Position numbers and translations under genes: made by a program. The notes under the pieces are model-generated. The model worked only from the letters and a program-made list of their open reading frames with translations, made no database searches and was not told where the DNA came from. A stretch of DNA of 64,000 nucleotides from Gemmatimonadaceae bacterium. Lineage in GTDB: Bacteria; Gemmatimonadota; Gemmatimonadetes; Gemmatimonadales; Gemmatimonadaceae. The DNA is taken from positions 9,653 to 73,652 of the forward strand of contig DASSOG010000054.1 in NCBI GenBank assembly GCA_035700805.1, written 5' to 3'. Positions within the stretch are counted from its first letter, which is position 1. Each line of letters starts with the position of its first letter. Positions 4,232 to 44,667 of this stretch are shown here, one piece after another.

Positions 4232-5197
4232 ATGGGTGAGCCCGCGACCGGACGCACCGCCCGAATCTGGCGGGACGGCCAGCTCGTGAACTGGGAAGAC
4301 GCCACGATCCACGTGATCAGCCACGTGGTGCACTATGGGTCGAGCGTCTTTGAGGGCATGCGGTGTTACGAAACGCCCTCTGGCGGAGCCGTGTTCCGCG
4401 CCCGCGACCACATGCGCCGCCTCGTGGACTCCTGCCGCATCTATCGGATTCCGCTCAAGTACTCCGTGGACGAGCTGGTGCGGGGGTGCCTGGACACGAT
4501 CGCCGCCAACCAGGTGCGGGAGTGCTACTTCCGGCCGGTGGTCATCCGCACGGGCGAGCAGATGGACGTGCTGGCCGCCGCGGCCACGGTCGAGACCTAC
4601 ATGATCGCGTGGAAGTGGGGCGCGTACCTGGGCACCGAGGGCATGCAGCACGGCGTGGATGCGCGGGTCTCGAGCTGGCGCCGCGCCGCGCCCGATACGT
4701 TTCCCACCATGGCCAAGGCGGGCGGTAACTACCTGAGCTCGCAACTGGCCAAGATGGAAGCCAAGGCCGACGGCTATGCCGAAGGCATCATGCTGGATGC
4801 CGCCGGCTTCATCTCGGAGGGGAGCGGCGAGAACCTGTTCGCGGTGCGCGACAACGTGCTCTACACGGCGCCGCTCTCGGCGGGCATCCTGCCGGGCATC
4901 ACGCGCGATACGATCATCCAGCTCGCGCACGACCTGGGGCTGGAGGTGCGCGAGCAGCTCCTGCCGCGCGAATTCCTGTACATCGCCGACGAGCTGTTCT
5001 TCTGCGGCACGGCGGTGGAGGTCACCCCCGTCCGCAGCGTGGACCGCGTGCCCGTGGGCAGCGGCGACCGCGGGCCGGTGACCGCCCGGCTGCAGAAGCT
5101 GTACCTGGATACCGCGCACGGCCGCGCGCCCGACCCGCACGGCTGGCTCACGCCCGTGCCGGAACCCGCCGTCGTTGCCGCCGGAGCCGGACGATGA
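4232..5197 (+). CDS. ilvE: Branched-chain amino acid aminotransferase (class IV)
   Basis: Typical N-terminus (IWRDGQLVNWEDATIHV...HYGSSVFEGMRCY) and GITRDTIIQLA. Strong RBS GGAGGAGGGGA upstream of the ATG. Confidence 0.9.
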   Translation: MGEPATGRTARIWRDGQLVNWEDATIHVISHVVHYGSSVFEGMRCYETPSGGAVFRARDHMRRLVDSCRIYRIPLKYSVDELVRGCLDTIAANQVRECYFRPVVIRTGEQMDVLAAAATVETYMIAWKWGAYLGTEGMQHGVDARVSSWRRAAPDTFPTMAKAGGNYLSSQLAKMEAKADGYAEGIMLDAAGFISEGSGENLFAVRDNVLYTAPLSAGILPGITRDTIIQLAHDLGLEVREQLLPREFLYIADELFFCGTAVEVTPVRSVDRVPVGSGDRGPVTARLQKLYLDTAHGRAPDPHGWLTPVPEPAVVAAGAGR

Positions 5198-5237
5198 GAC
5201 CCCTGTCGGTGGCGCGGCGCGCGGTCGGGAGGCGGGC

Positions 5238-5819
5238 ATGATCGTCGGATGCCTGGCCCTGAACGCGTCGTTCGAGCCGCTGACCATGGTGCCGCTCAAG
5301 CGGGCCCTGCGCCTGGTGATCGACGGCAAGGCCGAGATCGTCGAAGCCGACCATGACCGGTTCGTGCACTCGGAGCGCCTGTCGCTGCCGCGCCCCGTGG
5401 TCATTCGCCTCACCAAGTTCATCCACGTGCCGCGCCGCTTCCGGCGGCAGGTGACCAACACGTTCCTGTTCGCGCGCGACCATTACCGGTGCCAGTACTG
5501 CGACCGGCATGTCACGGAACTCAAGCCCCGCGAGTCGCTCACGCGCGATCACCTGATTCCGATTTCGCGCGGCGGCACCAACGACTGGACCAACGTGGTG
5601 GCGGCGTGCAGCGCGTGCAACACGCGCAAGGGCAATCGCATGCCCGACGAGATCGGGATGCATCCGCACACGATCCCGGTGGAACCGCATTTTGTGCACC
5701 TGAGCTGGGCCGTGCGCCGGCTCACGCCCATCCAGGCGCGGTACATCCGGACGTTCTATGGCGACACGGTGCTGCACCAGCTCGAACAGCTCGAGCATCG
5801 AGGCCCGGCGCTGGCCTGA
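5238..5819 (+). CDS. HNH endonuclease family protein
   Basis: HNH/Cys-box core CQYCDR...DHLIPISRGGTNDWTNVVAACSACNTRKG. Start set at MIVGCLALN (ATG 5238) inside the 214-aa ORF. Confidence 0.8.
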   Translation: MIVGCLALNASFEPLTMVPLKRALRLVIDGKAEIVEADHDRFVHSERLSLPRPVVIRLTKFIHVPRRFRRQVTNTFLFARDHYRCQYCDRHVTELKPRESLTRDHLIPISRGGTNDWTNVVAACSACNTRKGNRMPDEIGMHPHTIPVEPHFVHLSWAVRRLTPIQARYIRTFYGDTVLHQLEQLEHRGPALA

Positions 5820-5869: not shown

Positions 5870-6535
5870 TCACTTCTCGCCGGCTACGAACGTGGGCGAG
5901 GTGGCCTCGTAGCTCCGGTGCGTGCCGCCCAGGACGCGTGAGAGCAGCCGCCCGATGCCGTTCCTGAGGGCGGACAGGGGGTTGCCGCTGCCCTTCACGG
6001 CGGGCCGCAGGTCGCCGTGCACCCAGCGCTCCAGTTCTCCCAGGTCGCTGGCGTTCAGCGATTCCACCTCAAGCACCACGTTGTAGTAATACCGCTCGCC
6101 CTTGTGGGACGGCGCCAGGCGCACGCGATACGGCTGCGCCAGCACTGCCTGCGCCGAGTCGAGCGAGGTGATGGCGCCAAAGTCCTCGGACTGCTTGCCG
6201 TCGCGCCGCAGGATGCGGTACGCGGGTCGGTAGGGATCCGGCAGGTACTGCACCAGCACTTCCCAGTGTGTGCTGCTCTCCAGGTGGTTGAACATCCCGC
6301 CGCTGCGCCACAGCTCCAGGCGGAAGTTCAGCTCCACGGGAAACCCGTTGTGCATCAGTTCCTGGAGCGGCGGGTCGTCCAGGATGTGCGTGGCCGACAC
6401 CGCCGGCACGCGCGTTGCTTGTGCGGCGGCCAGGTCCACGCGCACGCCCGGCGCGCCCTGCGCTGCGGCACGCGGCGGCAGCATGGCCAGCGCAAGGGCC
6501 AGGGCCGGGAGCAGGAGGTGGAGGCGCCGGTGCAC
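5870..6535 (-). CDS. Secreted DUF4390-like protein
   Basis: Signal peptide (LLLPALALALAMLPPRAAAQ). Size and pattern resemble DUF4390 by recollection only (ELNFRLELWR...YRILRRDG...YYYNVVLEVESL). GTG start lies 3 nt after the upstream stop. Confidence 0.6.
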   Translation of the reverse strand: MHRRLHLLLPALALALAMLPPRAAAQGAPGVRVDLAAAQATRVPAVSATHILDDPPLQELMHNGFPVELNFRLELWRSGGMFNHLESSTHWEVLVQYLPDPYRPAYRILRRDGKQSEDFGAITSLDSAQAVLAQPYRVRLAPSHKGERYYYNVVLEVESLNASDLGELERWVHGDLRPAVKGSGNPLSALRNGIGRLLSRVLGGTHRSYEATSPTFVAGEK

Positions 6536-6538
6536 GGG

Positions 6539-8257
6539 CTAGAAGCGATGCTGCAGCCGGATGAACACGCGCGCCGGCAGTCCTGCCTCGGACAGTGCCT
6601 TGGCCACGTACACACCCACATTGTCGAAGTCGAGCCCGAACCCGATGTCGGTGTGGAACGTGGACGGGTCGGGCAGGGTCCAGCGGCCGTAGCGCACCGG
6701 CCCGCTGCCGCTCCCCGGACCGGTCATCCAGCCGCGTCCGGCGTCCAGGAACAGCACCCACGCGCCGTTGGCATTCAGGTGCGGTCGCACCCAGTCGTCG
6801 TTGTCCCAGTCGAACAGGTGCAGGTGCAGCGCGCTCCGGTATTCCGCCTGCGCGAGGGCAATGCGGTCGCACTGCGCGGGCATTCCCGCGGGCACCGCGC
6901 CAAAGGCGCACGTGGACACATCCAGTCCGGACACGGGCCGCCGGAACCCGAATCCGGGAAGCGCATCGTAGCCGTCCACGGAGAGCCGGCGCTCAGTGGG
7001 CAGCGCGTCGCCGCCCAGCCACCCGCCGGCCACCACGCGGAGGTTGAGCTGCACGTTGCGCGATACGCGATTGTAACGGCGCAGGTCCACGAACAGCCGG
7101 TTGTACTGCGCGGCATCGGTGGCGGGATAGCTGCGCACCACGCCCGTGCCCGCCAGCGAATCGAAGCGCACCCATCCGTGCTCGAACTCGCCAGCTACGT
7201 ACCAGCCGGCCCAGGGGTTCGCTTCGTCGCTGCGCGTGTCGATGTTCAGCGCCAGGCGGGCCAGGTGCGCGCGCGCGTCGTCCAGCGTCGGGTTGGGACG
7301 CCAGGCGGCATCCGAGCGGAACAGGCTCCACGCGTTTGCCGCGGCGCGGGGGCTCCAGTGTTCGCTGGCATACGAGGCCTTGAGCGTGGCGTCCGGCCCG
7401 ACAAAGAACCCTGCCTCCAGGCTGCCACCCTGCCGGTTATACCAGTCCCGATAATCCCGCCGGAACAGCCCCGACGTGAGGCCGGTTTCCAGGTTGCTCA
7501 GCCCCCACGCTTCCACGGGGGTCACGAGGTCGTACGCTCCCGCGCCCAGCAGCACGCCGCGGCGGCCACCCAGCCGGATTTCCGTGCGCAGGTTGTGGCC
7601 CACGTCGTTGTCGGTGCTGCGGAAGCTGCTGGCCGTGCGCAACACGGCGTATGCGTCCAGGCGCGCGGTCCATCCATCAAAATCGCGCTCCATCTGGGGA
7701 CCCAGATTGATGGGCAGTCCCTCCACGCGGTTGTAGGCGCCGGCGCTCGCTACGTGCAGCCTCGTGCCGCTCCAGTCCTGCTCGTGCTCCACGCGCCGCC
7801 ACCACGGCTCCTCATCAATCCCCTGCTCGGTGGCGCGGATGCGGTCGCCCGATCGGGTGTAGCGCAACGGATCACGGTAGATGCGGATCTCCCCACCCAC
7901 GTACCCGGCGTTCTGGCCGATCACCGTGCCACCGACCACGAGCAGGTTGCCGTCAATTCGCGCGCTCGGGGCCAGCGTTACGTTGCCGTTGATGGCCAGG
8001 AGCGTGCCGGTCACGTGACCGGCCACCTGCACGGGCCCGTCGAGCACCGCCACGTCGCCGGTGATCTCGCGCGCGGCGTGCACATCCAGGGCGCCCGCCA
8101 CACGCAGGGTGGCGTCGGCGTTGTACAGGCGCACGGCTTCGCGGGCCACGTCGCGCGGGAGGGCGCGGCCGTCGAGCCCGGAGTCCGGTTGTTGCGCCCG
8201 GAGCGCCAGGGGCATGGTGAACAGCACGATCGCGAGCAGGAGACGACGCATGGACAT
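6539..8257 (-). CDS. Outer-membrane protein: N-terminal bactofilin-like (polymer-forming cytoskeletal, beta-helix) repeats fused to an Omp85/surface-antigen-type beta-barrel
   Basis: Signal peptide MSMRRLLLAIVLFTMPLALRAQ. The segment GDVAVLDGPVQVAGHVTGTLLAINGNVTLAPSARIDGNLLVVGGTVIG matches the bactofilin repeat style. The C-terminal part has alternating beta-strand character, an ERRLSVDGYDALPGFGF motif (Omp85 RF-LGG-RGY-like), and ends in ...RLQHRF. Confidence 0.72.
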   Translation of the reverse strand: MSMRRLLLAIVLFTMPLALRAQQPDSGLDGRALPRDVAREAVRLYNADATLRVAGALDVHAAREITGDVAVLDGPVQVAGHVTGTLLAINGNVTLAPSARIDGNLLVVGGTVIGQNAGYVGGEIRIYRDPLRYTRSGDRIRATEQGIDEEPWWRRVEHEQDWSGTRLHVASAGAYNRVEGLPINLGPQMERDFDGWTARLDAYAVLRTASSFRSTDNDVGHNLRTEIRLGGRRGVLLGAGAYDLVTPVEAWGLSNLETGLTSGLFRRDYRDWYNRQGGSLEAGFFVGPDATLKASYASEHWSPRAAANAWSLFRSDAAWRPNPTLDDARAHLARLALNIDTRSDEANPWAGWYVAGEFEHGWVRFDSLAGTGVVRSYPATDAAQYNRLFVDLRRYNRVSRNVQLNLRVVAGGWLGGDALPTERRLSVDGYDALPGFGFRRPVSGLDVSTCAFGAVPAGMPAQCDRIALAQAEYRSALHLHLFDWDNDDWVRPHLNANGAWVLFLDAGRGWMTGPGSGSGPVRYGRWTLPDPSTFHTDIGFGLDFDNVGVYVAKALSEAGLPARVFIRLQHRF

Positions 8258-8289
8258 ATCCCTCAATGTCGTAAGTTGGCCGGGGGAAA

Positions 8290-8305
8290 CGCACCTCCCG
8301 TGCCG
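8290..8305 (-). promoter_or_regulatory. Candidate sigma-54 (-24/-12) promoter for the bactofilin-Omp85 / DUF4390-like operon
   Basis: The minus strand reads CGGCACGGGAGGTGCG. This gives GGCAC then TGC with exact GG-N10-GC spacing, 39 nt upstream of the ATG at 8257. GAGGGA RBS lies downstream. Confidence 0.45.
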
Positions 8306-8419
8306 AATCGGGCCGCGTGGGCCAACCCGCCCCCACGCCACTACTTACCTCTCCAGGCGCCACGGCGTGCACTGCGCGGTGTCCTCACCCGGGGGCACCG
8401 GCACCGTGTCGGTCCGGCG

Positions 8420-9799
8420 TCATTCGGCGTCGTTGTCGATCCCCAGCCGACGCATCCGGCGGTACAGGTTGGGCCGGTCCGTCTGCAGCCGCCGCGCCGC
8501 CTCTGCCACATTCCCTCCCGCCACGGAGAGGGCCCGCGAAATCAGCGTGCGCTCAAATTCGTCGAGCGTGTCGTTCAGCGGCTGGGTCAGTCGCGCGGGA
8601 TCGGGAAGGGGCGGCTCGGCGCCCGCCTCGCTGCCTCCAATCTGGACCACCGCGCGCACGTCCGCCGCGGTCACCTCACCGCCCGCGTGCAGGATGGCCA
8701 GGCGTTCCACCACGTTGGCCAGCTCGCGGACGTTGCCGGGCCAGCGGTAGCGCGTGAGCAACTGCAGGGCCTCTTCACCCCACGGGGGGGCCGGATGCCC
8801 GGTGCGCGCGCGGTGCAGGCGCGAGAAGTGCTCCACCAGCGGCGCGATGTCGTCAGGGCGTTCGCGCAGCGGCGGTACCGGCAGGGGAATCACATTCAGC
8901 CGGAAGAGGAGGTCCTCGCGGAAGCTCCCATCGGCCACCGCCCGCGTAAGGTCCTTGTTGGTGGCGGCCAGGATGCGCACGTCCACGCGGATGGGGGCGC
9001 CGCCGCCCACACGCTCAATCTCCCGGGCTTCGATGGCGCGCAGCAGCTTTGCCTGCGCCTCCTGCCCCAGGTCGCCCACCTCATCCAGCAGCAGCGTGCC
9101 CGTGTGCGCCAGCTCAAAGCGGCCGATGCGCCGCTCCGAAGCACCGGTAAAGGCGCCCTTCTCGTGCCCGAACATCTCGCTCTCCACGAGGTCGCGCGGA
9201 ATGGCCGCGCAGTTCACGCGCACGAACGGCCGGTCGTGCCGAGGGCTGGCGAAGTGGATGGCCGCCGCCACCAGCTCCTTGCCGGTGCCCGACTCGCCGG
9301 TGATCAGCACGCGGGCATCCGTGCCGGCCACGCGGTCAATCAACCCGCGGACGCGGTCCATCGCGGCGCTCCGACCCACCATCTCGCCGCCCAGCCCCAC
9401 CTCCTCGCGAAGCGCCCGGGCCTCGCGGCGCACGCGTCGCAGTTCGATGGCCGACGCCAGCGCCAGGAGTACGCTCTCAGGGCTCAGCGGCTTTTCCAGG
9501 AAGTTGAATGCGCCTTCCTTGGTGGCCTTCACGGCATCGCTCAGGTCCGCCTTGCCGCTCATCATCACCACGGGCGTGTCGGGCAGCGCCTGGCGCAGCC
9601 GGTGCAGGGTGGCCATCCCATCCAGCGCGCCGGGCATCGAGAGGTCCAGCAATACCGCGTCCGGCTCGGCGTCGGCGGCGCGCAGCAGGCCCGAGGCGCC
9701 GTCGGCGGCATCGCGCACCTCGAACCCCTCGGCGGCGAGCAGTGCCCCCACCATGCGCCGGATGTTCGGCTCGTCGTCGATGATCAGGACGCTGGGCAT
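8420..9799 (-). CDS. Sigma-54-dependent response regulator (NtrC family: receiver + AAA+ + Fis-type HTH)
   Basis: Receiver ([11 protein letters not shown]...VLLDLSMPG), Walker A GESGTGKE and an intact GAFTGA loop. C-terminal HTH: [26 protein letters not shown]. Confidence 0.92.
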
Positions 9800-9833
9800 G
9801 TTGATGCTGGGTGCGGGGGCCGGGTGGCGCTGG

Positions 9834-10142
9834 TCAGCGCGTGGGCGGCTGGCCGCTGCCCACCGACCTGGTCTCGGTCTGCAGACGCGTCAGGAATCGC
9901 TGCGCTTCGGCCACGCGCTCAATCTCCACGGCAATCGAGTCCACCGTCTGTTCAATGCGATCCAGACGCGACTCCAGATTCGCTGGAATGGCGGGCGGCT
10001 CCGCCCGGCGCTCGAAGCGCCGGATGATCGCCCGGACGATGGGCAAGCCGAGCACCATGGCCGTGACCATGGTGAACACGATCGCGACGATCGGGACGGC
10101 GTTGCTGGGAATGCCGTTCATGGGCATCTGAAGGAGCATCAT
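9834..10142 (-). CDS. Small single-pass membrane protein, paralog B (102 aa)
   Basis: This is the in-frame tail of the spurious 314-aa ORF. It has an N-terminal TM helix ([21 protein letters not shown]) and the motif [29 protein letters not shown]. Its ATG overlaps the upstream stop (ATGA). Confidence 0.7.
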
Positions 10143-10423
10143 GATTGCACCGTTGACTTGGCCGCGGGCAGTGGCACCGCCGCGCGTTCCGACAGGAGCC
10201 GGGTGGTGAAGCGCTGCCCCTCGGAGATGCGCTCGATCTCCACCGCGATGGAATCCACGGCTTGTTCGATGCGCGCGATCCGTGCTTCCGTCTCGGCACT
10301 CAACCCGCCCGCCGCGCTCCCCTTGGGCTCCGGGCGCTTGCGGAACAGTCCCAGAAAACTGGTCACGACGTATCCGCCAACCAGGAGCGCCGTGATTGCA
10401 ACGATCATCGTCTGGCCGTCCAT
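10139..10423 (-). CDS. Small single-pass membrane protein, paralog A (94 aa)
   Basis: TM helix (MIVAITALLVGGYVVTSFLGLF) followed by [30 protein letters not shown]. Starts 2 nt after the kinase stop. Confidence 0.75.
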   Translation of the reverse strand: MDGQTMIVAITALLVGGYVVTSFLGLFRKRPEPKGSAAGGLSAETEARIARIEQAVDSIAVEIERISEGQRFTTRLLSERAAVPLPAAKSTVQS

Positions 10424-10425
10424 TG

Positions 10426-11682
10426 CTATGCTCCCGTTTCCAGTGAGTTGGTGTGTCCATCAGCCTCGACTGCCGCGCCCACCGGCAGGACGAAGCGCAC
10501 CGTCGTCCCCACCCCCGGCGTGCTCGCAGCCGTGACCTCGCCCTCGTGCGCCAGGGTGGTCTGCCGGGCGATGGCCAGTCCCAGCCCCGTGCCGCCAGCC
10601 TTGTACGTAACGTACGGATCCCACATGTGCGCCAGTTGGTCGGGTGGAATGCCCGGTCCCGTGTCCTGCACGTCAATGGCCACGGCCGGCTGTCCGCGGA
10701 GGGTGGCGGGCGCCACGCGCAACGTGATGGCGCCGCCCGCGGTCCCGACGCCCACGGCGCGGCACGCGTCAGCCGCATTGAGCACCACGTTGCTCAGCGC
10801 GCGGTGCAGGGCGTCGTGGTGGCCCAGGATCATCGGTGTGGTCGGGTCGACCTCGATGGCCAGGGGAAGTTCAGGGGGCACGGAGGTCCGCGCGACGTAG
10901 CGCACCAGGTCGCCCAGGTCCACGGGCGCGCGCGGGCCCTCGGGCAGCCGCCCGAACTGCGAGAAGCTGCGCGCCAGTGTTTCCAGTCGCGATGTCTCGG
11001 TGGCCAGCACGTCCACAATTTCCTCCAGGTTCCCGGGCGCCTCGCGCCGCAGCCGCGCCACTGCAAAGCGAATGGGCGTGAGCGGGTTCTTCAGTTCATG
11101 GGCCGCCTGCCGCGCGGCCTCGCGCAATGCGGCCGCGCGCTCGGCCTCCAGCGCGCGCGTGCGGCCCAGCTCGATCTCGTCGGCCATGACGCGCATGCGC
11201 GCGCGCAACACCTCGAATTCCGGCGCCCCCCGTGTGTGCACCGGAGTGGGCAGCGGTTCACCGCGCCCGATCCGTTCGGTCCATCCTATCAACTCCACCA
11301 GCGGGCGACTCAACTGGCGGCTCAGGTGGCCGGCCACGCGTGAGGCCCCGAGGCCCACGACGATGGCCAGGAGCAGGATGGCCAGCGCCGCCACCACCAC
11401 CGCCTTCTGGGCGACGTAGGCCAGTTGCCTGGAGTGCAGCAGGTTCTGGCGGAGGGCTTGCTGGTGGGCGTCCACGGCGCGGCGCTGGGCCTGCGTCAGC
11501 GGGGCGGAGCGCACGGCGTCGGCGGCGCGAGAACCGCTGGCGGCCACGCTGTCCCACGCGGTGGTGGCGCCCACCATCGAGAAGGCCCACCGGCTGGTGG
11601 TGAACCACCCCAGGCCGAGCAGGGCAGACGGCACCAGCGCGAACGACAGCAGGATGACAAACAGCCGGCTGCGAAACCCCAT
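10426..11682 (-). CDS. Sensor histidine kinase (2 TM, HAMP, HisKA, HATPase_c)
   Basis: H-box AAHELKNPLTPI, N-box NVVLNAADA, and G-boxes DTGPGIP and GGTGLGLAI. Start set at MGFRSRLFVILL (ATG 11682) inside the 534-aa ORF. Confidence 0.85.
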   Translation of the reverse strand: MGFRSRLFVILLSFALVPSALLGLGWFTTSRWAFSMVGATTAWDSVAASGSRAADAVRSAPLTQAQRRAVDAHQQALRQNLLHSRQLAYVAQKAVVVAALAILLLAIVVGLGASRVAGHLSRQLSRPLVELIGWTERIGRGEPLPTPVHTRGAPEFEVLRARMRVMADEIELGRTRALEAERAAALREAARQAAHELKNPLTPIRFAVARLRREAPGNLEEIVDVLATETSRLETLARSFSQFGRLPEGPRAPVDLGDLVRYVARTSVPPELPLAIEVDPTTPMILGHHDALHRALSNVVLNAADACRAVGVGTAGGAITLRVAPATLRGQPAVAIDVQDTGPGIPPDQLAHMWDPYVTYKAGGTGLGLAIARQTTLAHEGEVTAASTPGVGTTVRFVLPVGAAVEADGHTNSLETGA

Positions 11683-12111
11683 GCGGTTCACGAGCCCTCC
11701 CTGAGTACGCGAGCAGTCGGCGGCAGTTTCGTCTCGCAACATACAGGGCGGGGGGGTGGCCAACCAGCGGCCAAGGCTTCCGGGATTTCCATTTACCCAA
11801 TACATTATCTGGGTTGACAATCGGTCCCCCGGGCGACGCGCCGGCTTGGCGCGTGCACGGTTTGCAGGTCCGGATTGCCACCGCGGCGGTCGCACGCCCG
11901 CCGGGAGGACGCCCATTCGTGGCGCGCCCTCCAAACCAAGGCTCTTCGTACCGCGCCATTCCGGGCGCGGCCGGCGGGTCGCGTGCCGATCGACGGGCGC
12001 TGCTCGGTGACGATCGTCTGCGCACGTCATGCACGGACGACCTGCCCCACGCGCCTGGCGGCCGAATCCATAACCGCCAAGGGCCCCTCAGGGGCCCGCA
12101 CAGGAAAGGGC

Positions 12112-13848
12112 ATGAACCCTCGTAATCAGCGCCGCGAACCCACGCGTTCGCACGGCGCCCTCGTCCACCGTGGGCCGCAGGCCACGGCCATCGCCTCACA
12201 CCCGGTTTCCGCGCTGCCCTTCCAGGCACCGAACGCGGCGCTCCTCATCGACTTTGACAACGTCACGATGGGGATCCGATCCGACCTGGGGCACGAACTC
12301 CGCAACCTGCTCGGCTCCGACATCATCAAGGGCAAGGTGGCCGTGCAGCGCGCCTACGCCGACTGGCGCCGCTATCCGCAGTACATCGTGCCGCTCACCG
12401 AGGCGTCCATCGACCTGATCTTCGCGCCGGCGTACGGGTCGTCCAAGAAGAACGCCACGGACATCCGCCTGGCCATTGACGCGCTGGAGCTGGTGTTCAC
12501 CCGCCCTGAAATCGGCACGTTCATCCTGCTGTCGGGCGACTCGGACTTCTCCAGCCTCGTCATCAAGCTCAAGGAGTACGGCAAGTACGTCATCGGCGTC
12601 GGCATCCGCGAGTCCTCCAGCGACCTGCTGGTGATGAACTGCGACGAGTACTACAGCTACAACGCGCTGGCCGGGCTGGTGAAGGCGCATGAGGACGAAG
12701 GGGCGCGCAAGTATGACCCGTGGGAACTGGTCACCGAGGCCATCAACCGCATGGAGCGCAACGGCGACGTGATGCGCTCCGACCGGCTGAAGCAGGTGAT
12801 GCAGGACATCGACAGTTCGTTCGATGAGAAGAACACGGGCCATTCCAAATTCTCAAAGTTCGTGCAGGATGCCGCGGCGCGTGGGCTGCTCACGCTGACC
12901 AAGCTCGAGAACGGCCAGCTTGAAATCGCGCCGGCCGCGGGCAGTGCAGAGGCCAAGCCGGCAGTCGCCGGCGCGGCACCCGCGACGGAGCCGCGTGGGG
13001 AGCGTCCCGGCACTGGCGAGGAGCGCAACGGGCGTCGGGGTCGTCGTGGCGGACGTGGCCGCGGTCGTCGCGGGGCAGAGGCTCCGCAACTGGAGCTGGC
13101 CTCCGGCTCGGCGGCCAAGGGCGCTGCGCCCGCGTCCGCTCCCGCCCCTGCTTCCGCAACGGCTGGCGCCGGCGCGACTGCGCAAGGCGAGCGGCTCACG
13201 CGCAACGAGGCCTTCGACCTGGTGCGTCGCGCCGTGGAGACGCTCACGACCACCGACGAAGTGGTGCGTGCAAGCGCGGTGCGCCTGCGTGCCGCCGAGT
13301 TGCTGGGGCGTGGCAGTGAAAGCCTGAGCGAGCGCAACTTCACGCGCATCCTCCAGGACGCGCACGATGCCAACGTGGTGGACCTCCGCCGCCGTGGCGA
13401 CGACTTCGAGGTATCCCGCGCGGTGGCCGCGGCGGCCGTGGCCGACCAGCTCGCGGCATCCGCCGCCGCGCAGGCGCCGGCAGCGGCGCCTGCGGCCCGG
13501 ACACCTCGGCTTGGCATGGGTGCGCGCGGTGGCGCCTCACGCGGCCGTGCGCGCGCGGGTGAACTGCCCCCCGAATTGCTGGCGGTTGGCGTGGTGAAGA
13601 CGGCTGCTGCGGCAGCCCCGGCCCCAGCTCCCGCGGTCGCGGCGGCAGAGGCGCCCGCTGCTTCCGGTGAGGATTCGAAGCCCGCGCCCAGGAAGCGTGG
13701 TCGCAAGCGCAGTGCGAAGAAGGCGGCTTCCGCGTCCGATGCGGAGTCCACCGCCACGGATAAGGCGGCCCCGCGCAAGGCGCCACGCAAGCGTCGCACC
13801 GCCCGGAAGACGGCGAGCAGCGACGACACCGCAAAGGCCGAAGCGTGA
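12112..13848 (+). CDS. NYN (LabA-like PIN-fold) domain protein with two OST-HTH/LOTUS-like domains and a Lys/Arg/Ala-rich tail
   Basis: NYN core (ALLIDFDNV...KNATDIRLAIDA...LLSGDSDFSSLVIKLKEYGKYVIGVG). Helical OST-HTH-like segments and a basic low-complexity C-terminus. ATG 12112 is preceded by AGGAAAGGG. Confidence 0.82.
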   Translation: MNPRNQRREPTRSHGALVHRGPQATAIASHPVSALPFQAPNAALLIDFDNVTMGIRSDLGHELRNLLGSDIIKGKVAVQRAYADWRRYPQYIVPLTEASIDLIFAPAYGSSKKNATDIRLAIDALELVFTRPEIGTFILLSGDSDFSSLVIKLKEYGKYVIGVGIRESSSDLLVMNCDEYYSYNALAGLVKAHEDEGARKYDPWELVTEAINRMERNGDVMRSDRLKQVMQDIDSSFDEKNTGHSKFSKFVQDAAARGLLTLTKLENGQLEIAPAAGSAEAKPAVAGAAPATEPRGERPGTGEERNGRRGRRGGRGRGRRGAEAPQLELASGSAAKGAAPASAPAPASATAGAGATAQGERLTRNEAFDLVRRAVETLTTTDEVVRASAVRLRAAELLGRGSESLSERNFTRILQDAHDANVVDLRRRGDDFEVSRAVAAAAVADQLAASAAAQAPAAAPAARTPRLGMGARGGASRGRARAGELPPELLAVGVVKTAAAAAPAPAPAVAAAEAPAASGEDSKPAPRKRGRKRSAKKAASASDAESTATDKAAPRKAPRKRRTARKTASSDDTAKAEA

Positions 13849-24594: not shown

Positions 24595-24770
24595 GCGGTC
24601 GTGGGCAACAGGGTGTCGCGGCAAAGCGACGGGGCAGAGGTGGAGGGCGGGAGGGTCGGCGTCGATGCTGAATCGACCGTGGAGTCCGCTGGGGGGAGGG
24701 GAGGGGAAACCTCGGGGGCGGATGCGCCCGGGACCCGCCGGACGCCTGCCTTCAGTTGGACCTGCAATGA

Positions 24771-24844
24771 CGCGCGCGACAGGATTCGAACCTGTGACCT
24801 TCGGCTCCGGAGGCCGACGCTCTATCCAGCTGAGCTACGCGCGC
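24771..24844 (-). tRNA. tRNA-Arg (anticodon CCG)
   Basis: Hand-folded cloverleaf: acceptor GCGCGCG/CGCGCGC, D-arm GCTC-AGCTGGATA-GAGC, anticodon loop CTCCGGA, T-arm ACAGG-TTCGAAT-CCTGT. 74 nt; no encoded CCA. Confidence 0.9.
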
Positions 24845-24978
24845 GGGGTAGGAAGCGAAACCTAGCAGCTTTCACGGTGCGCGGGAATACCGTAGCTTGG
24901 TGCCGCAGTTCCCGCCCTCGCGCGTCGGCGCCCTGTCCCGCCGCACTCCCCGCTCCTCACGGCTTCCCGGCAACGCCT

Positions 24979-40351: not shown

Positions 40352-42802
40352 ATGGACGCCCTGCTGAAAGACGTGCGCTACGCCGTGCGCGCGCTCATCC
40401 ACAACCCCGGGATGACTACGGTGGCCGTGATCTGCCTGGCCCTCGGGATTGGCGCCAATGCCACGATGTTCGGCATCGTGGACGCGCTGATGTTCAAGGC
40501 GCCCGCGCACATTGTCCAGCCCGACGGCGTGGCCCGCATCTATTTCAACTATCCCGGCGGCAAGCCTGGCACGGTGAGTGCCACGCAGATTACCGGATAC
40601 GGCACGTACGAAGCCCTGCGGGATAACGTGCCGGCGTTCAAGGAAATCGCCGCCTATTGGTCCAACACCACGACCATCGGGCACGGCTCGGACGCCCGCC
40701 CGCTGGACGCGGTCCTCGTGACGCCAAGCTTCTTCCGCGCGCTCGGCACACAGCCGCTGCTGGGCCGGTTCTTCGCGCCCGACGAGGAGCGCGCGGAGGG
40801 CGGCAAGACCGTGGTGCTCGGCTACGACCTGTGGAAGGGCCGGTTCAATGGCGATCGCGGCGTGCTGGGTCGAGCGGTGAACATTGGAGGTCTGCAATAC
40901 ACCGTGATCGGGGTGGCGCCGCCGGAGTTTACCGGGGTGGACCTCAAGCGCGTGGACGCCTGGCTTCCCATCGGCGCGGCCACCACGATGTTCTCGTCCA
41001 ACGCGCTCTCGCACGACGGCAATTACTGGCTGAGCACCATTGCGCGGATCCCAGCCGACGTGTCGCCCGACGTGGCGGCCGCGCAAGCGACTGCGGCGTT
41101 TGCATCCGAGCACGCCAGGGAGTCCTGGAGCAAGGGCACGCGCGTGATCTTCGCGCCCATTCCCGTGGGCCGCGCGCCTAATATGTCAGCGAACACGAAA
41201 GTCTCGCTCTGGCTGGGGCTGGTATCACTGCTGGTGCTGCTCGTCGCCTGCGCCAACGTGGCCAACCTGCTGCTCGCGCGCGCGGTCGCGCGGTCGCGAG
41301 AAATCGCCGTCCGTCTCTCGCTGGGAGCCGGACGCTGGCGCATTGCTCGGCAACTGCTCACCGAGAGCATGGTGCTGGCGGGGATCGGCGCCGTTGCCGC
41401 GCTGGTGCTCACGGTGTGGACGTCGGCCTTCGTGCGGCGCGTGGTGATCCCGGACGTGCCGCTGATGGGACACGCCATATCGCTGCGGGTGCTCGGCTTT
41501 GCCGGCGTGGTGGCGCTGGGCACCGGCCTCGTGTGCGGACTGGCGCCCGCGCTCGTGATTGCGCGGTCCAACCTCAACGCCGTGCTCAAGGGCGAAGCCA
41601 GCGGACGCGGCGGGCGCTTCCTGGTGCAGCGCGCGCTGGTGGCGGGGCAGGTGGCGCTCACCGTCGTGCTGCTGGCCGGCGCCGGACTGTTTGTGCAGAG
41701 CCTGCGAAATATCAGGAATGAGGACCTGGGCATGAACGTGCAGCGCCTGCTCTACGCCCGGGTCGATTTCAAGGCCGCCAATATCTCCAACGCGGTCGCA
41801 ACGGCACAATACAACGCCATGCTGCAGCGCGTGCGCGCCGTCCCGGGCGTGACCGCCGCGAGTATCTCCATCGGGGAGCCGTTTGGGAGCGGCTGGGGCG
41901 TGAACATCATCCCCACTGAGGGCCCCGCCGCCGAGGTGAAGCGACCGCGCGCCGCACCCATGGGGCGAGCGGTGTCGGAAGGCTTTTTCCGTGCCACGGC
42001 TCGACGCTTCACGCAGGGTCGCGCGTTCACGTCGGCCGAGCACAGCGCGTCGGCCCACGTCGCAATTATCAATCAGGGCACCGCCGATTACTACTGGCCG
42101 CACGGCGGCGCGCTCGGCGCCTGCATTCACACCTACGACAAGCAGCCCAACTGCACCACCATCGTCGGCATCCTGGCCGACGCCCGGCAGTACCAGATTA
42201 CCAGCGCGGCGATCCAGGAGCTGTACGTGCCCATCGAGGATACGTCGGTTGTGCCCAGTATGGGGGTGAGCATGATGGAAGTGCGCACGTCCGGCGATCC
42301 ACGGGCGATGGTCGCGCCGGTGCGCCATGCCATGGAATCCGCGGGCCCGGACATTCCCTATCCAAGCGTGCGGCCACTCACGGATATACTCGATCCGCAA
42401 TACCGGCCGTGGCAGCTGGGCACCCAGATGTTCGGTGCCTTTGGTTTGCTGGCCCTGGTGCTGGCGGGCGTGGGACTGTACGGGGTGCTGGCCTACGCCG
42501 TGGTGCAGCAGCGGCGTGAGCTGGGAATCCGGGCGGCCCTTGGCGCCCAGCGCGGCGCGCTCGTCCGCCTGGTGGTAAGAACCGGACTGGTCACCACGAT
42601 TGTCGGAGCTGGCATTGGCGTGGTGGCGGCGCTGGGCGCGGGGCGGTTCATCGCGTCGCTGCTGTACGACGTGTCGGCGCGCGATCCCAAGTCGCTGGCC
42701 GGTGCCGCTGTCTCGCTGGTGATTGTCGCGGTGGTGGCCAGTTACCTGCCGGCCCGGCGTGCGGCGCGAGTCGATCCCATGGTGGCGTTGCGGTCGGAAT
42801 AG
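40352..42802 (+). CDS. ADOP-type (duplicated MacB/FtsX) permease, copy 2
   Basis: Canonical N-terminus MDALLKDVRYAVRALIHNPGMTTVAVICLALGIGANA and two FtsX modules. The C-terminus ends ...RRAARVDPMVALRSE. GGAGG RBS. Confidence 0.85.
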   Translation: MDALLKDVRYAVRALIHNPGMTTVAVICLALGIGANATMFGIVDALMFKAPAHIVQPDGVARIYFNYPGGKPGTVSATQITGYGTYEALRDNVPAFKEIAAYWSNTTTIGHGSDARPLDAVLVTPSFFRALGTQPLLGRFFAPDEERAEGGKTVVLGYDLWKGRFNGDRGVLGRAVNIGGLQYTVIGVAPPEFTGVDLKRVDAWLPIGAATTMFSSNALSHDGNYWLSTIARIPADVSPDVAAAQATAAFASEHARESWSKGTRVIFAPIPVGRAPNMSANTKVSLWLGLVSLLVLLVACANVANLLLARAVARSREIAVRLSLGAGRWRIARQLLTESMVLAGIGAVAALVLTVWTSAFVRRVVIPDVPLMGHAISLRVLGFAGVVALGTGLVCGLAPALVIARSNLNAVLKGEASGRGGRFLVQRALVAGQVALTVVLLAGAGLFVQSLRNIRNEDLGMNVQRLLYARVDFKAANISNAVATAQYNAMLQRVRAVPGVTAASISIGEPFGSGWGVNIIPTEGPAAEVKRPRAAPMGRAVSEGFFRATARRFTQGRAFTSAEHSASAHVAIINQGTADYYWPHGGALGACIHTYDKQPNCTTIVGILADARQYQITSAAIQELYVPIEDTSVVPSMGVSMMEVRTSGDPRAMVAPVRHAMESAGPDIPYPSVRPLTDILDPQYRPWQLGTQMFGAFGLLALVLAGVGLYGVLAYAVVQQRRELGIRAALGAQRGALVRLVVRTGLVTTIVGAGIGVVAALGAGRFIASLLYDVSARDPKSLAGAAVSLVIVAVVASYLPARRAARVDPMVALRSE

Positions 42803-44096: not shown

Positions 44097-44173
44097 TGGT
44101 CGGGGCGACTGGATTCGAACCAGCGACCTCCTGCTCCCGAAGCAGGCGCTCTACCGGGCTAAGCTACGCCCCG
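44097..44173 (-). tRNA. tRNA-Pro (anticodon CGG), CCA encoded
   Basis: Cloverleaf: CGGGGCG acceptor, anticodon loop TTCGGGA, T-loop TTCGAAT, 3' ACCA present. 77 nt. Confidence 0.9.
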
Positions 44174-44206
44174 CCGACCTTCCCCCACCTTCCACGTGCC
44201 ACCCCA

Positions 44207-44280
44207 TGCGCCCGGAGGGACTCGAACCCCCAACCTTCTGATCCGTAGTCAGATGCTCTATCCAATTGAGCCACGGGCGC
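44207..44280 (-). tRNA. tRNA-Arg (anticodon ACG)
   Basis: Cloverleaf: GCGCCCG acceptor, anticodon loop CTACGGA, T-loop TTCGAGT. 74 nt; no CCA. Confidence 0.9.
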
Positions 44281-44319
44281 GCGCAGACAAATTACCACGG
44301 CCGCCAGGATTTTGCGGCA

Positions 44320-44393
44320 TGGGCGGTACAAGACTCGAACTTGTGACCTCCACGATGTCAACGTGGCGCTCTAACCAACTGAGCTAACCGCCC
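44320..44393 (-). tRNA. tRNA-Val (anticodon GAC)
   Basis: Cloverleaf: GGGCGGT acceptor, anticodon loop TTGACAT, T-loop TTCGAGT. 74 nt; no CCA. Confidence 0.9.
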
Positions 44394-44453
44394 GACTGCG
44401 CCGCCGGGAACCTTTTCGCCCCTGCGGTGATTCCTTAAATGTCCGGTACCGAG

Positions 44454-44526
44454 AGCGGGAAACGGGACTCGAACCCGCGACCCCAACCTTGGCAAGGTTG
44501 TGCTCTACCAACTGAGCTATTCCCGC
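44454..44526 (-). tRNA. tRNA-Gly (anticodon GCC)
   Basis: Cloverleaf: GCGGGAA acceptor, anticodon loop TTGCCAA, T-loop TTCGAGT. 73 nt; no CCA. Confidence 0.9.
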
Positions 44527-44594
44527 GTCAATCCGAACCGTGGTCTGGGTGCTGCCGTCCGGCCCGGCCGCCGGCGCCGGTTGCCCGGTGCCGA

Positions 44595-44667
<73 letters not shown>

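Follow-up and report, generated by a model that had tools for sequence, protein, structure and literature searches.

A putative envelope signalling module of Gemmatimonadota that combines an NtrC-family two-component system with an Omp85-type barrel protein and a DUF4390-related protein

In a stretch of 64,000 nucleotides (nt) from a Gemmatimonadaceae bacterium (contig DASSOG010000054.1, positions 9,653 to 73,652), the whole of which we refer to as the window, six genes on the minus strand encode a two-component system, two small membrane proteins, an outer-membrane barrel protein and a secreted protein related to DUF4390. The loci compared with it come from a genome scan with an alignment of the barrel protein (306 species-level genomes; loci analyzed, the best 80 of the 306), and all 80 belong to Gemmatimonadota or to unclassified metagenome-assembled genomes (MAGs). 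As judged from these comparisons, four of the genes form a core that is found phylum-wide in Gemmatimonadota in the fixed order kinase, sigma-54 regulator, barrel protein and DUF4390 protein, and in the lineage of the window the barrel and DUF4390 genes are predicted to have a conserved sigma-54 (-24/-12) promoter of their own. The six genes are the following:

5870..6535 (-): secreted periplasmic DUF4390-family protein, 221 amino acids (aa), from family-level Pfam matches and AlphaFold2
6539..8257 (-): outer-membrane protein (barrel protein), 572 aa, or more probably 570 aa with a start at ATG 8251, from AlphaFold2, Foldseek and family-level Pfam matches
8420..9799 (-): NtrC-family response regulator (bacterial enhancer-binding protein), 459 aa, from Pfam, NCBIfam and PDB
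9834..10142 (-): small membrane protein B, 102 aa, paralogue of A, from its translation
10139..10423 (-): small membrane protein A, 94 aa, from its translation
10426..11691 (-): sensor histidine kinase, 421 aa from a GTG, from Pfam, NCBIfam, a PDB match, and a conserved start and ribosome-binding site (RBS)

Since the G+C content of the window is about 69%, long spurious open reading frames (ORFs) are common in it; the six minus-strand genes are genuine, each having homologues or domains. A preliminary description of this DNA, made from the letters alone, had read them as almost free of gaps, and all of its spacings match the coordinates: 2 nt lie between the kinase stop (10426) and the start of gene A (10423), the stop of A and the start of B share an ATGA (10139-10142), 34 nt separate the end of B (9834) from the regulator start (9799), a gap of 162 nt extends from the regulator stop (8420) to the ATG at 8257, and 3 nt lie between the barrel gene stop (6539) and the DUF4390 gene start (6535). 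Comparison with orthologues left four of the six start codons as they had been read and moved those of the kinase and the barrel gene slightly. The kinase starts at a conserved GTG (11691) with the RBS GGGAGGG, the ATG at 11682 being an ATC in homologues, and the barrel gene most likely starts at its second ATG (8251) rather than at 8257; residue M3 of the barrel protein is invariant among homologues, and an RBS (GAGGGA) lies 7 nt 5' of ATG 8251. The neighbours of the cluster are both on the plus strand, an HNH gene (5175-5819) that converges on it and an NYN/OST-HTH gene that diverges from it, beginning at 12112. Scans of the cluster for intrinsic terminators and sigma-70 promoters, which are uncalibrated for this phylum, returned no sites.

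The regulator possesses all the hallmarks of an NtrC-family enhancer-binding protein, namely a receiver (REC) domain, an AAA+ Sigma54_activat domain, a Fis-type helix-turn-helix (HTH), a GAFTGA loop and a Walker A motif, with Pfam matches to Response_reg (3e-26), Sigma54_activat (1e-67), AAA_lid_14 and HTH_8. The intact GAFTGA loop seen earlier in the window lies in the sequence EKGAFTGA, the Walker A motif reads GESGTGK, and 73 of the 74 regulator orthologues retain GAFTGA or GSFTGA together with an intact Walker A. NCBIfam scores are nearly equal for AtoC (428 bits), NtrC (426 bits) and NtrX (406 bits, cut-off 600), while the best PDB match, Brucella NtrX (5m7n, 319 bits), stands only marginally above Aquifex NtrC4 (306 bits) and NtrC1, and ZraR is matched strongly as well. 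Neither the window nor any of the 80 genome loci (L001-L080) gave an rpoN gene in a search with the RpoN-box peptide; for Gemmatimonas aurantiaca T-27, however, Francke et al. (2011, additional file 1; PMC3162934) record sigma-54 along with 12 enhancer-binding proteins. The kinase consists of two transmembrane (TM) helices around a periplasmic loop of about 65 aa, which is conserved only modestly among orthologues, followed by HAMP, HisKA and HATPase_c domains (Pfam), and its H-box reads AHELKNPL. Its best PDB match is ZraS, and its best partial NCBIfam matches are AtoS, ZraS and NtrB. PAS and PDC domains were not found in it by Pfam, so that it is not NtrY-like in architecture and departs from the arrangement of NtrYX kinases (PDC or multi-TM sensor, HAMP, PAS, HisKA, HATPase).

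The protein encoded downstream of the 162-nt gap is, as predicted from sequence and model, a secreted protein in which a bactofilin-like beta-helix precedes an Omp85-type barrel, with no POTRA domain. In the AlphaFold2 model a signal peptide and a helix precede a beta-helix (residues ~50-142), which a linker joins to a barrel of about 16 strands; the predicted local distance difference test (pLDDT) score is 72 and rises above 90 in the short repeated strands of the beta-helix. The signal peptide ends ..LRA/QQ and the protein terminates in ...HRF. Foldseek matched the protein to BamA barrels (E 1e-8, probability 1.0), at TM-scores of just 0.3-0.5. The window protein by itself falls below the Pfam thresholds for both Omp85 (19.2 vs 24 bits) and Bactofilin (18.3 vs 27.9 bits), whereas 50 of 58 family members match Bactofilin (best 3.5e-6) and 43 of 58 match Omp85, which lends family-level support to the fusion proposed in the preliminary description. 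No POTRA domain was detected by Pfam in the protein or its family, and the N-terminal domain was modelled as a beta-helix instead. Within the family F503-x-D505-x-G507, C450, C463 and the C-terminal Phe are invariant. Homologues number more than 1451, are about 568 aa long and, where a taxon is named, all come from Gemmatimonadota, and a family profile compared with PDB sequences gave one marginal match, Fusobacterium BamA (E 0.0024). A literature search found no paper naming Omp85 together with bactofilin and no described function for the set of two-component system and DUF4390 gene combined with an Omp85/bactofilin-like protein, in agreement with the earlier remark that no function was known for this gene combination.

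The 221-aa protein belongs, by sequence comparison, to a DUF4390-related family. Its signal peptide ends AAA/QG, the domain spans residues 54-157, and a conserved C-terminal extension follows, in which the segment PLSALRxGxGxLLSRVLGG..Y is highly conserved. Alone, it reaches 17.9 bits against DUF4390 (PF14334; threshold 27), while the DUF4390 model matches 22 of 30 orthologues at E<=0.01 (best 1.6e-7), some have precomputed PF14334 matches, and the Longimicrobium orthologue is named DUF4390 by NCBI; the earlier reading as a DUF4390-like secreted protein is supported by the orthologues and the signal peptide. A profile of the family matched 502 clusters at E<=1e-3 (best 150 matches considered). 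The AlphaFold2 model (pLDDT 84) gave nothing significant in a fold search against PDB, and LolA, its top match (E 0.02, probability 0.14), was not used as a fold relative.

The preliminary description had also stated that DUF4390 genes sit next to NtrY/NtrX-type systems, a link that it called unexplained. The association is real and published, and the second half of the statement is outdated for Proteobacteria, since PlrP of Bordetella has been described as the periplasmic DUF4390 third component of the NtrYX-type system PlrSR (Wolber et al., 2026; PMC13001219). Genetic experiments in that work revealed PlrP as a brake on PlrS phosphatase activity that probably works via the PDC domain of PlrS, and an adjacent DUF4390 (PlrP-like) gene marks a beta/gamma-proteobacterial subset of NtrYX systems; such accessories, the authors speculate, may exist outside Proteobacteria (PMC13001219). 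In the window a DUF4390-family gene likewise accompanies the two-component genes, two genes downstream of the regulator.

Proteins A and B are 46% identical to each other (E 1e-19), and neither has a Pfam or NCBIfam match. Protein A has a single N-terminal TM helix, a positively charged stretch and a conserved helix, with its C-terminus predicted to be cytoplasmic, and the conserved helix of both proteins is probably cytoplasmic. The family of protein B comprises 45 matches, none with a Pfam domain, and all those named by taxon are from Gemmatimonadota, with no relatives seen beyond Gemmatimonadaceae; a weak match of B to Rv2743c (E 0.04) was not used. The number of such small genes varies from none to at least two per locus among the 80 loci, and they are absent at the distant loci L081, L084 and L086, which suggests that the small proteins are a later addition to the four-gene core.

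Conservation of the neighbourhood had been set beforehand as a test of its significance, and the neighbourhood passed it. Wherever the contig allows, the order kinase, small genes, regulator, barrel gene and DUF4390 gene is constant in the 80 loci, and in many of them the regulator and barrel genes overlap by an ATGA or by 1 nt. One reading of this pattern would be inherited synteny only, with no functional tie between the two-component system and the barrel and DUF4390 genes. The NYN, HNH and ilvE genes that flank the cluster are equally syntenic across Gemmatimonadaceae and, because these unrelated genes keep their places as well, gene order alone is weak evidence within that family. However, the same four-gene core is present in L081, L084 (Longimicrobium sp.) and L086 with very different flanks and with barrel and DUF4390 proteins that are 29-38% identical, and because the core persists in three different contexts at about 30% identity, we conclude that the four genes are functionally linked across the phylum. 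The overlapping start and stop codons, and the independent tie of DUF4390 to NtrYX-type systems in Proteobacteria, likewise speak against mere synteny, which we regard as very improbable.

The gap between the regulator and barrel genes contains four further features:

8290..8305 (-): sigma-54-type -24/-12 promoter element, cGGCACGggagGTGCg (CGGCACGGGAGGTGCG), with GG at 8303-8304 and GC at 8291-8292
8324..8347 (-): conserved spacer block TAAGT...GTT (CAACTCnTTG in other lineages), from gap-alignment columns, between the boxes and the promoter
8380..8384 (-): upstream box 2, GGACA (GAGGACAC), a direct repeat with box 1, about 80 nt 5' of the promoter GG, from cross-species position
8406..8410 (-): upstream box 1, GACAC, candidate half of an upstream activating sequence, 106 nt 5' of the promoter GG, from cross-species position

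The promoter element lies about 45 nt before the barrel start, and the transcription start is predicted near 8279, about 28 nt 5' of ATG 8251. With respect to the consensus TGGCACGN4TTGCW, CGGCACGGGAGGTGCG has 3 mismatches, and a scan of the window at its 69% GC gave 111 consensus matches against 128 expected, which is no more than chance; the match in the window alone proves nothing by itself. The GG-N10-GC element to which the preliminary description had pointed in the 162-nt gap is therefore no better than chance as a single-sequence match, but it is present and conserved across species. In an alignment of the gaps of 20 loci (about 150-195 nt long, with barrel-protein identity down to 46%), GG[CT]A[CT]G-N4-[GC]TGC is conserved amid randomised flanks, with a variable spacer and an invariant GG and GC. 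Moreover, GG[CT]A[CT]G-N4-NTGC occurs 26 times in the 260 nt 5' of the barrel gene in the 80 loci (20 kb), compared to 0.31 matches expected from what remains of the 2.5 Mb of these loci. The element was found in every related locus with a long gap, 42-66 nt 5' of the aligned barrel start, including that of a Gemmatimonas sp. MAG (L042).

Likewise, the two upstream boxes, which begin about 10 nt past the regulator stop codon, hold their distance to the promoter: all 27 promoter-bearing sequences have GACAC at -103 to -113 from the GG, and 26 of the 27 have GGAC[AG] at -77 to -87. Their spacing is fixed to the promoter GG and not to the regulator stop codon, which ranges from -90 to -172. Within the window GACAC-N15-26-GGACA is not enriched (2 matches vs 1.8 expected), so that the boxes are backed by their cross-species position. 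The spacer block reads TCAACTCTTTG in several lineages and ATCAACCTCTTG in L084, sequences that resemble the core site of the integration host factor (IHF), WATCAANNNNTTR, and the block may thus be a DNA-bending or IHF-like site. A site for an enhancer-binding protein, a bend and a -24/-12 promoter constitute the usual geometry of sigma-54 promoters. Among the distant loci, L085 repeats the arrangement exactly, with GACAC at -106, L086 carries TGGTACGCATAGTGCA 60 nt upstream, and the Longimicrobium locus L084 has two GG-N10-GC candidates in addition to the IHF-like core. In L084 a perfect palindrome, TGACAC-N15-GTGTCA (4927-4953), extends over the regulator stop codon, where Gemmatimonadaceae have GACAC...GGACA, which suggests that the arrangement of the activator site changed between the classes.

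These alignments also bear on another view, in which a promoter 5' of the kinase serves the entire cluster as a single ordinary operon and the gap elements act at the level of RNA, as a processing or stability site or as a leader of the barrel gene, or are bound by some other factor. No terminator was seen between the regulator and barrel genes, many species lack any gap at this position, the sigma-54 match of the window has 3 mismatches and is at chance level when taken alone, and in several sequences box 2 has short stems on its flanks whose changes look compensatory, all of which would fit this view. However, an exact 10-nt spacing of GG and GC, set in GGYAYG and TGC around a spacer that is free to vary, is the signature of sigma-54 and not of a hairpin, the distances from the element to the gene start and from the boxes to the element are fixed, and an activator with an intact GAFTGA loop is encoded immediately 5'. 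We consider the single-operon view improbable.

A weight matrix built from 27 orthologous promoter sites and scanned over the window gave a single other match, TGGCACGGTGAGTGCC at 40562-40588 (+), which falls within the coding sequence of an 855-aa FtsX/MacB-like permease ORF; it is therefore probably not a promoter and was not counted as a member of a regulon. The proposal that the regulator is wired to its downstream neighbour is thus supported by phylogenetic footprinting, but such wiring does not hold throughout, the promoter having been lost in about two thirds of the species. On a neighbour-joining tree of the barrel proteins, promoter-bearing loci occupy the deepest branches and several separate clades, while the motif is missing from one large clade (about 40 loci) and from scattered others, where the gaps range from -19 to about 100 nt; L008 and L012 retain decayed promoter remnants that have lost the GG. 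Since the element is present in deep branches, the promoter is probably ancestral and would have been lost repeatedly, with the genes fusing into one operon. In promoter-less loci no recurring -24/-12 element was found 5' of the kinase, the small genes or the regulator. A recurring GG[CGT]ACGATGAC[TC]TCGT about 410 nt 5' of the kinase was set aside, its position probably pointing to the neighbouring NYN gene. In L009, L010 and L012, which belong to a clade without the intergenic promoter, a good sigma-54-like motif, GGCATGGCGATTGC, is located about 100 nt before the kinase stop, where it would sit 5' of the small genes, the regulator and the barrel gene; because it overlaps the codons of the kinase G2 box (GxGLAIA) it is possibly a coding coincidence, and we judged it as such. 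L081 lacks a promoter between its regulator and barrel genes and has a -24/-12 element that fits the motif, GGTATGCCGAATGCG (9786-9800), 33 nt 5' of a gene for a MASE8-GAF histidine kinase two genes downstream of the module; this element could be another target or a chance match.

The surroundings of the cluster showed some further features. The HNH gene (5175-5819, +) is syntenic in most loci and its product is 76-90% identical in all but one of them, a conservation that exceeds that of the barrel (about 50%) and DUF4390 (about 45%) proteins and is unusual for an HNH nuclease. On the opposite side, the intergenic region that separates the kinase start from the NYN/OST-HTH gene (11692-12111, about 420 nt) is conserved at the nucleotide level, with a mean column identity of 80% to L001-L013, compared to kinase proteins in these loci that are merely ~70% identical to that of the window. 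The region contains several hairpins, with compensatory changes in 21 of 112 predicted pairs (for example CGGCAG/CTGCCG vs CGGCGG/CCGCCG vs CGGCAA/TTGCCG), and its strand is ambiguous, alifold giving -138 kcal/mol when it is read in the direction of the kinase and -118 in that of the NYN gene, with mixed evidence from G-U pairs. It has no Rfam match, and nhmmer detected the full element in the L001-L013 clade only, in addition to a weak partial match in L079 that lies closer to the NYN gene than to the kinase; we regard it as a candidate structured leader or non-coding RNA. Rfam returned nothing but tRNAs for the window and the conserved intergenic region. Five tRNA genes (Pro, Arg, Val, Gly, Ala) are clustered at 44097-44667 (-) and a separate tRNA-Arg gene is found at 24769-24845 (-), while a 91-nt tRNA-Pro at 63012-63102 (-), predicted by ARAGORN only and lacking Rfam support, is probably a false positive or a degenerate gene.

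In summary, the module looks like a three- or four-component, sigma-54-coupled and accessory-assisted envelope signalling system. The reading that we favour, with slightly better than even confidence, is that of a self-contained, phylum-wide envelope signalling module with self-regulation and feedback by the DUF4390 protein. The phosphorylated regulator would bind the upstream boxes and activate E-sigma54 (the sigma-54 RNA polymerase holoenzyme) at the promoter of the barrel and DUF4390 genes, and the system would thereby raise the levels of its own barrel and DUF4390 proteins, whose basal supply probably comes from read-through of the kinase operon, since no terminator was seen in the gap. 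By analogy with PlrP of Bordetella (PlrSR) and with ZraP/ZraSR, the DUF4390 protein might then act from the periplasm on the kinase and shift its balance of kinase and phosphatase activity, closing a feedback loop. The barrel protein would most likely be the outer-membrane partner of the DUF4390 protein, serving as anchor, sensor or sequestering site, a partnership through which the kinase would respond to the condition of the outer membrane. Proteins A and B, which are found mainly in Gemmatimonadaceae, may be lineage-specific modulators of the kinase or regulator at the cytoplasmic face.

Several observations weigh against this feedback reading. In addition to the flanking synteny discussed above, about two thirds of the sampled species have no -24/-12 element in or 5' of the cluster while the GAFTGA loop is retained, and since the promoter was lost, no replacement was found and the loop was kept, the regulator would have other sigma-54 targets; autoregulation of the barrel and DUF4390 genes then appears dispensable, and the essential targets of the regulator must lie elsewhere. 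The activator of the promoter could also be another enhancer-binding protein. The kinase loop is short, modestly conserved and devoid of a PDC domain, whereas PlrP is thought to act via PDC, and the analogy with PlrP crosses architectures because the proteobacterial partners of DUF4390 are NtrX proteins without AAA+. Finally, the boxes form a direct repeat, which is unusual for dimers with a Fis-type HTH, and Longimicrobium has an inverted repeat.

A rival explanation is that the barrel and DUF4390 proteins are output only, i.e. effectors of the two-component system without feedback on the kinase, which could form a type-V-like self-exporter with the beta-helix as surface passenger or a device for outer-membrane biogenesis or repair. 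The beta-helix is a classical passenger fold, and type Vd Omp85 barrels export N-terminal passengers; in the present protein the beta-helix could be either a periplasmic arm or a type-V-like surface passenger. A sigma-54 promoter directly 5' of the barrel/DUF4390 pair and a kinase without the PDC domain implicated for PlrP would be expected of such an output, and sigma-54 has been argued to control the cell exterior in general (Francke et al., 2011; PMC3162934). However, the promoter was lost in most lineages while linkage and translational coupling were kept, as expected of stoichiometric partners, and the genes stay with the system after its loss and therefore fit components better than mere output. 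Likewise, the translational coupling of all genes in most other species fits components made in fixed proportion better than a mere target. Moreover, the one DUF4390 role with experimental support is that of a kinase-modulating third component. On balance, we think it rather unlikely that the pair serves as output only.

Beyond feedback as such, we tentatively consider an undescribed trans-envelope relay, in which the barrel with a periplasmic beta-helical arm would report the status of the outer membrane by binding or releasing the DUF4390 protein, which in turn would set the kinase/phosphatase balance and so drive the sigma-54 activator; we regard this relay as less likely than not. If true, the relay would be a functional analogue of Rcs or sigma-E surveillance made from unrelated parts, and DUF4390 would gain the outer-membrane partner that is missing in Proteobacteria. 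Our comparison suggests that the partnership of DUF4390 with two-component systems is ancient, extends to Gemmatimonadota and can couple to a bona fide sigma-54 activator. DUF4390 is here invariably joined to an undescribed Omp85-type protein with a beta-helix instead of POTRA, which yields testable hypotheses for the function of both DUF4390 and this POTRA-less Omp85 class. In addition, the locus provides a defined sigma-54 promoter with a candidate activator site in a phylum whose transcriptional regulation is almost unstudied, and the repeated loss of this internal promoter with retention of the genes represents a natural experiment on the evolution of autoregulatory wiring.

Compared to the Omp85 superfamily (BamA, TamA, TpsB and the type Vd protein PlpD), the barrel protein shares the signal peptide, a predicted barrel of about 16 strands, an invariant FxDxG-like motif and an aromatic residue at its C-terminus, but it has no POTRA and carries a bactofilin-like beta-helix at its N-terminus, and its loop-6 motif reads PG[FY] instead of RG[FY]. 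Pfam recognises the beta-helical repeat of bactofilins (PF04519) in 50 of 58 members of its family, but bactofilins are cytoplasmic and polymer-forming, whereas here the bactofilin-like segment follows a signal peptide and continues into a membrane barrel.

As for signalling systems, PlrP-PlrSR parallels the module in a secreted protein of about 200 aa that is almost entirely DUF4390, clustered with a kinase and regulator of the NtrB/C-NtrY/X lineage, and in a kinase H-box of the bifunctional HE[IL]KN type. The differences are considerable, since the DUF4390 gene lies downstream of the regulator here and upstream of the kinase there, rsmB is absent here, and the kinase lacks PDC and PAS, while the regulator is a full AAA+ protein with GAFTGA, in contrast to the beta-proteobacterial NtrX without AAA+. 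Moreover, in this other phylum an Omp85-type gene is inserted and translationally linked, a sigma-54 promoter is present, and the DUF4390 domain is divergent (sub-threshold in Pfam) with a conserved C-terminal extension.

The ZraPSR system of E. coli and Salmonella is a sigma-54 two-component envelope-stress system whose adjacent target is a periplasmic feedback protein, a principle that extends to CpxP-CpxAR. In line with this, ZraS is the best PDB match of our kinase, ZraR is a strong match of the regulator, and a gene for a periplasmic accessory lies alongside; in contrast, ZraP is small, helical, zinc-binding and unrelated to DUF4390, zraP is divergently transcribed, and the system has no outer-membrane component. 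NtrZ-NtrYX of Caulobacter and RcsF-Rcs share with the module the concept of an extracytoplasmic accessory that sets the kinase/phosphatase balance, and in Rcs an outer-membrane-associated sensor reports on the envelope, as proposed here for the barrel protein, but neither is related to the module in sequence, and in neither case does the system control its accessory gene through sigma-54.

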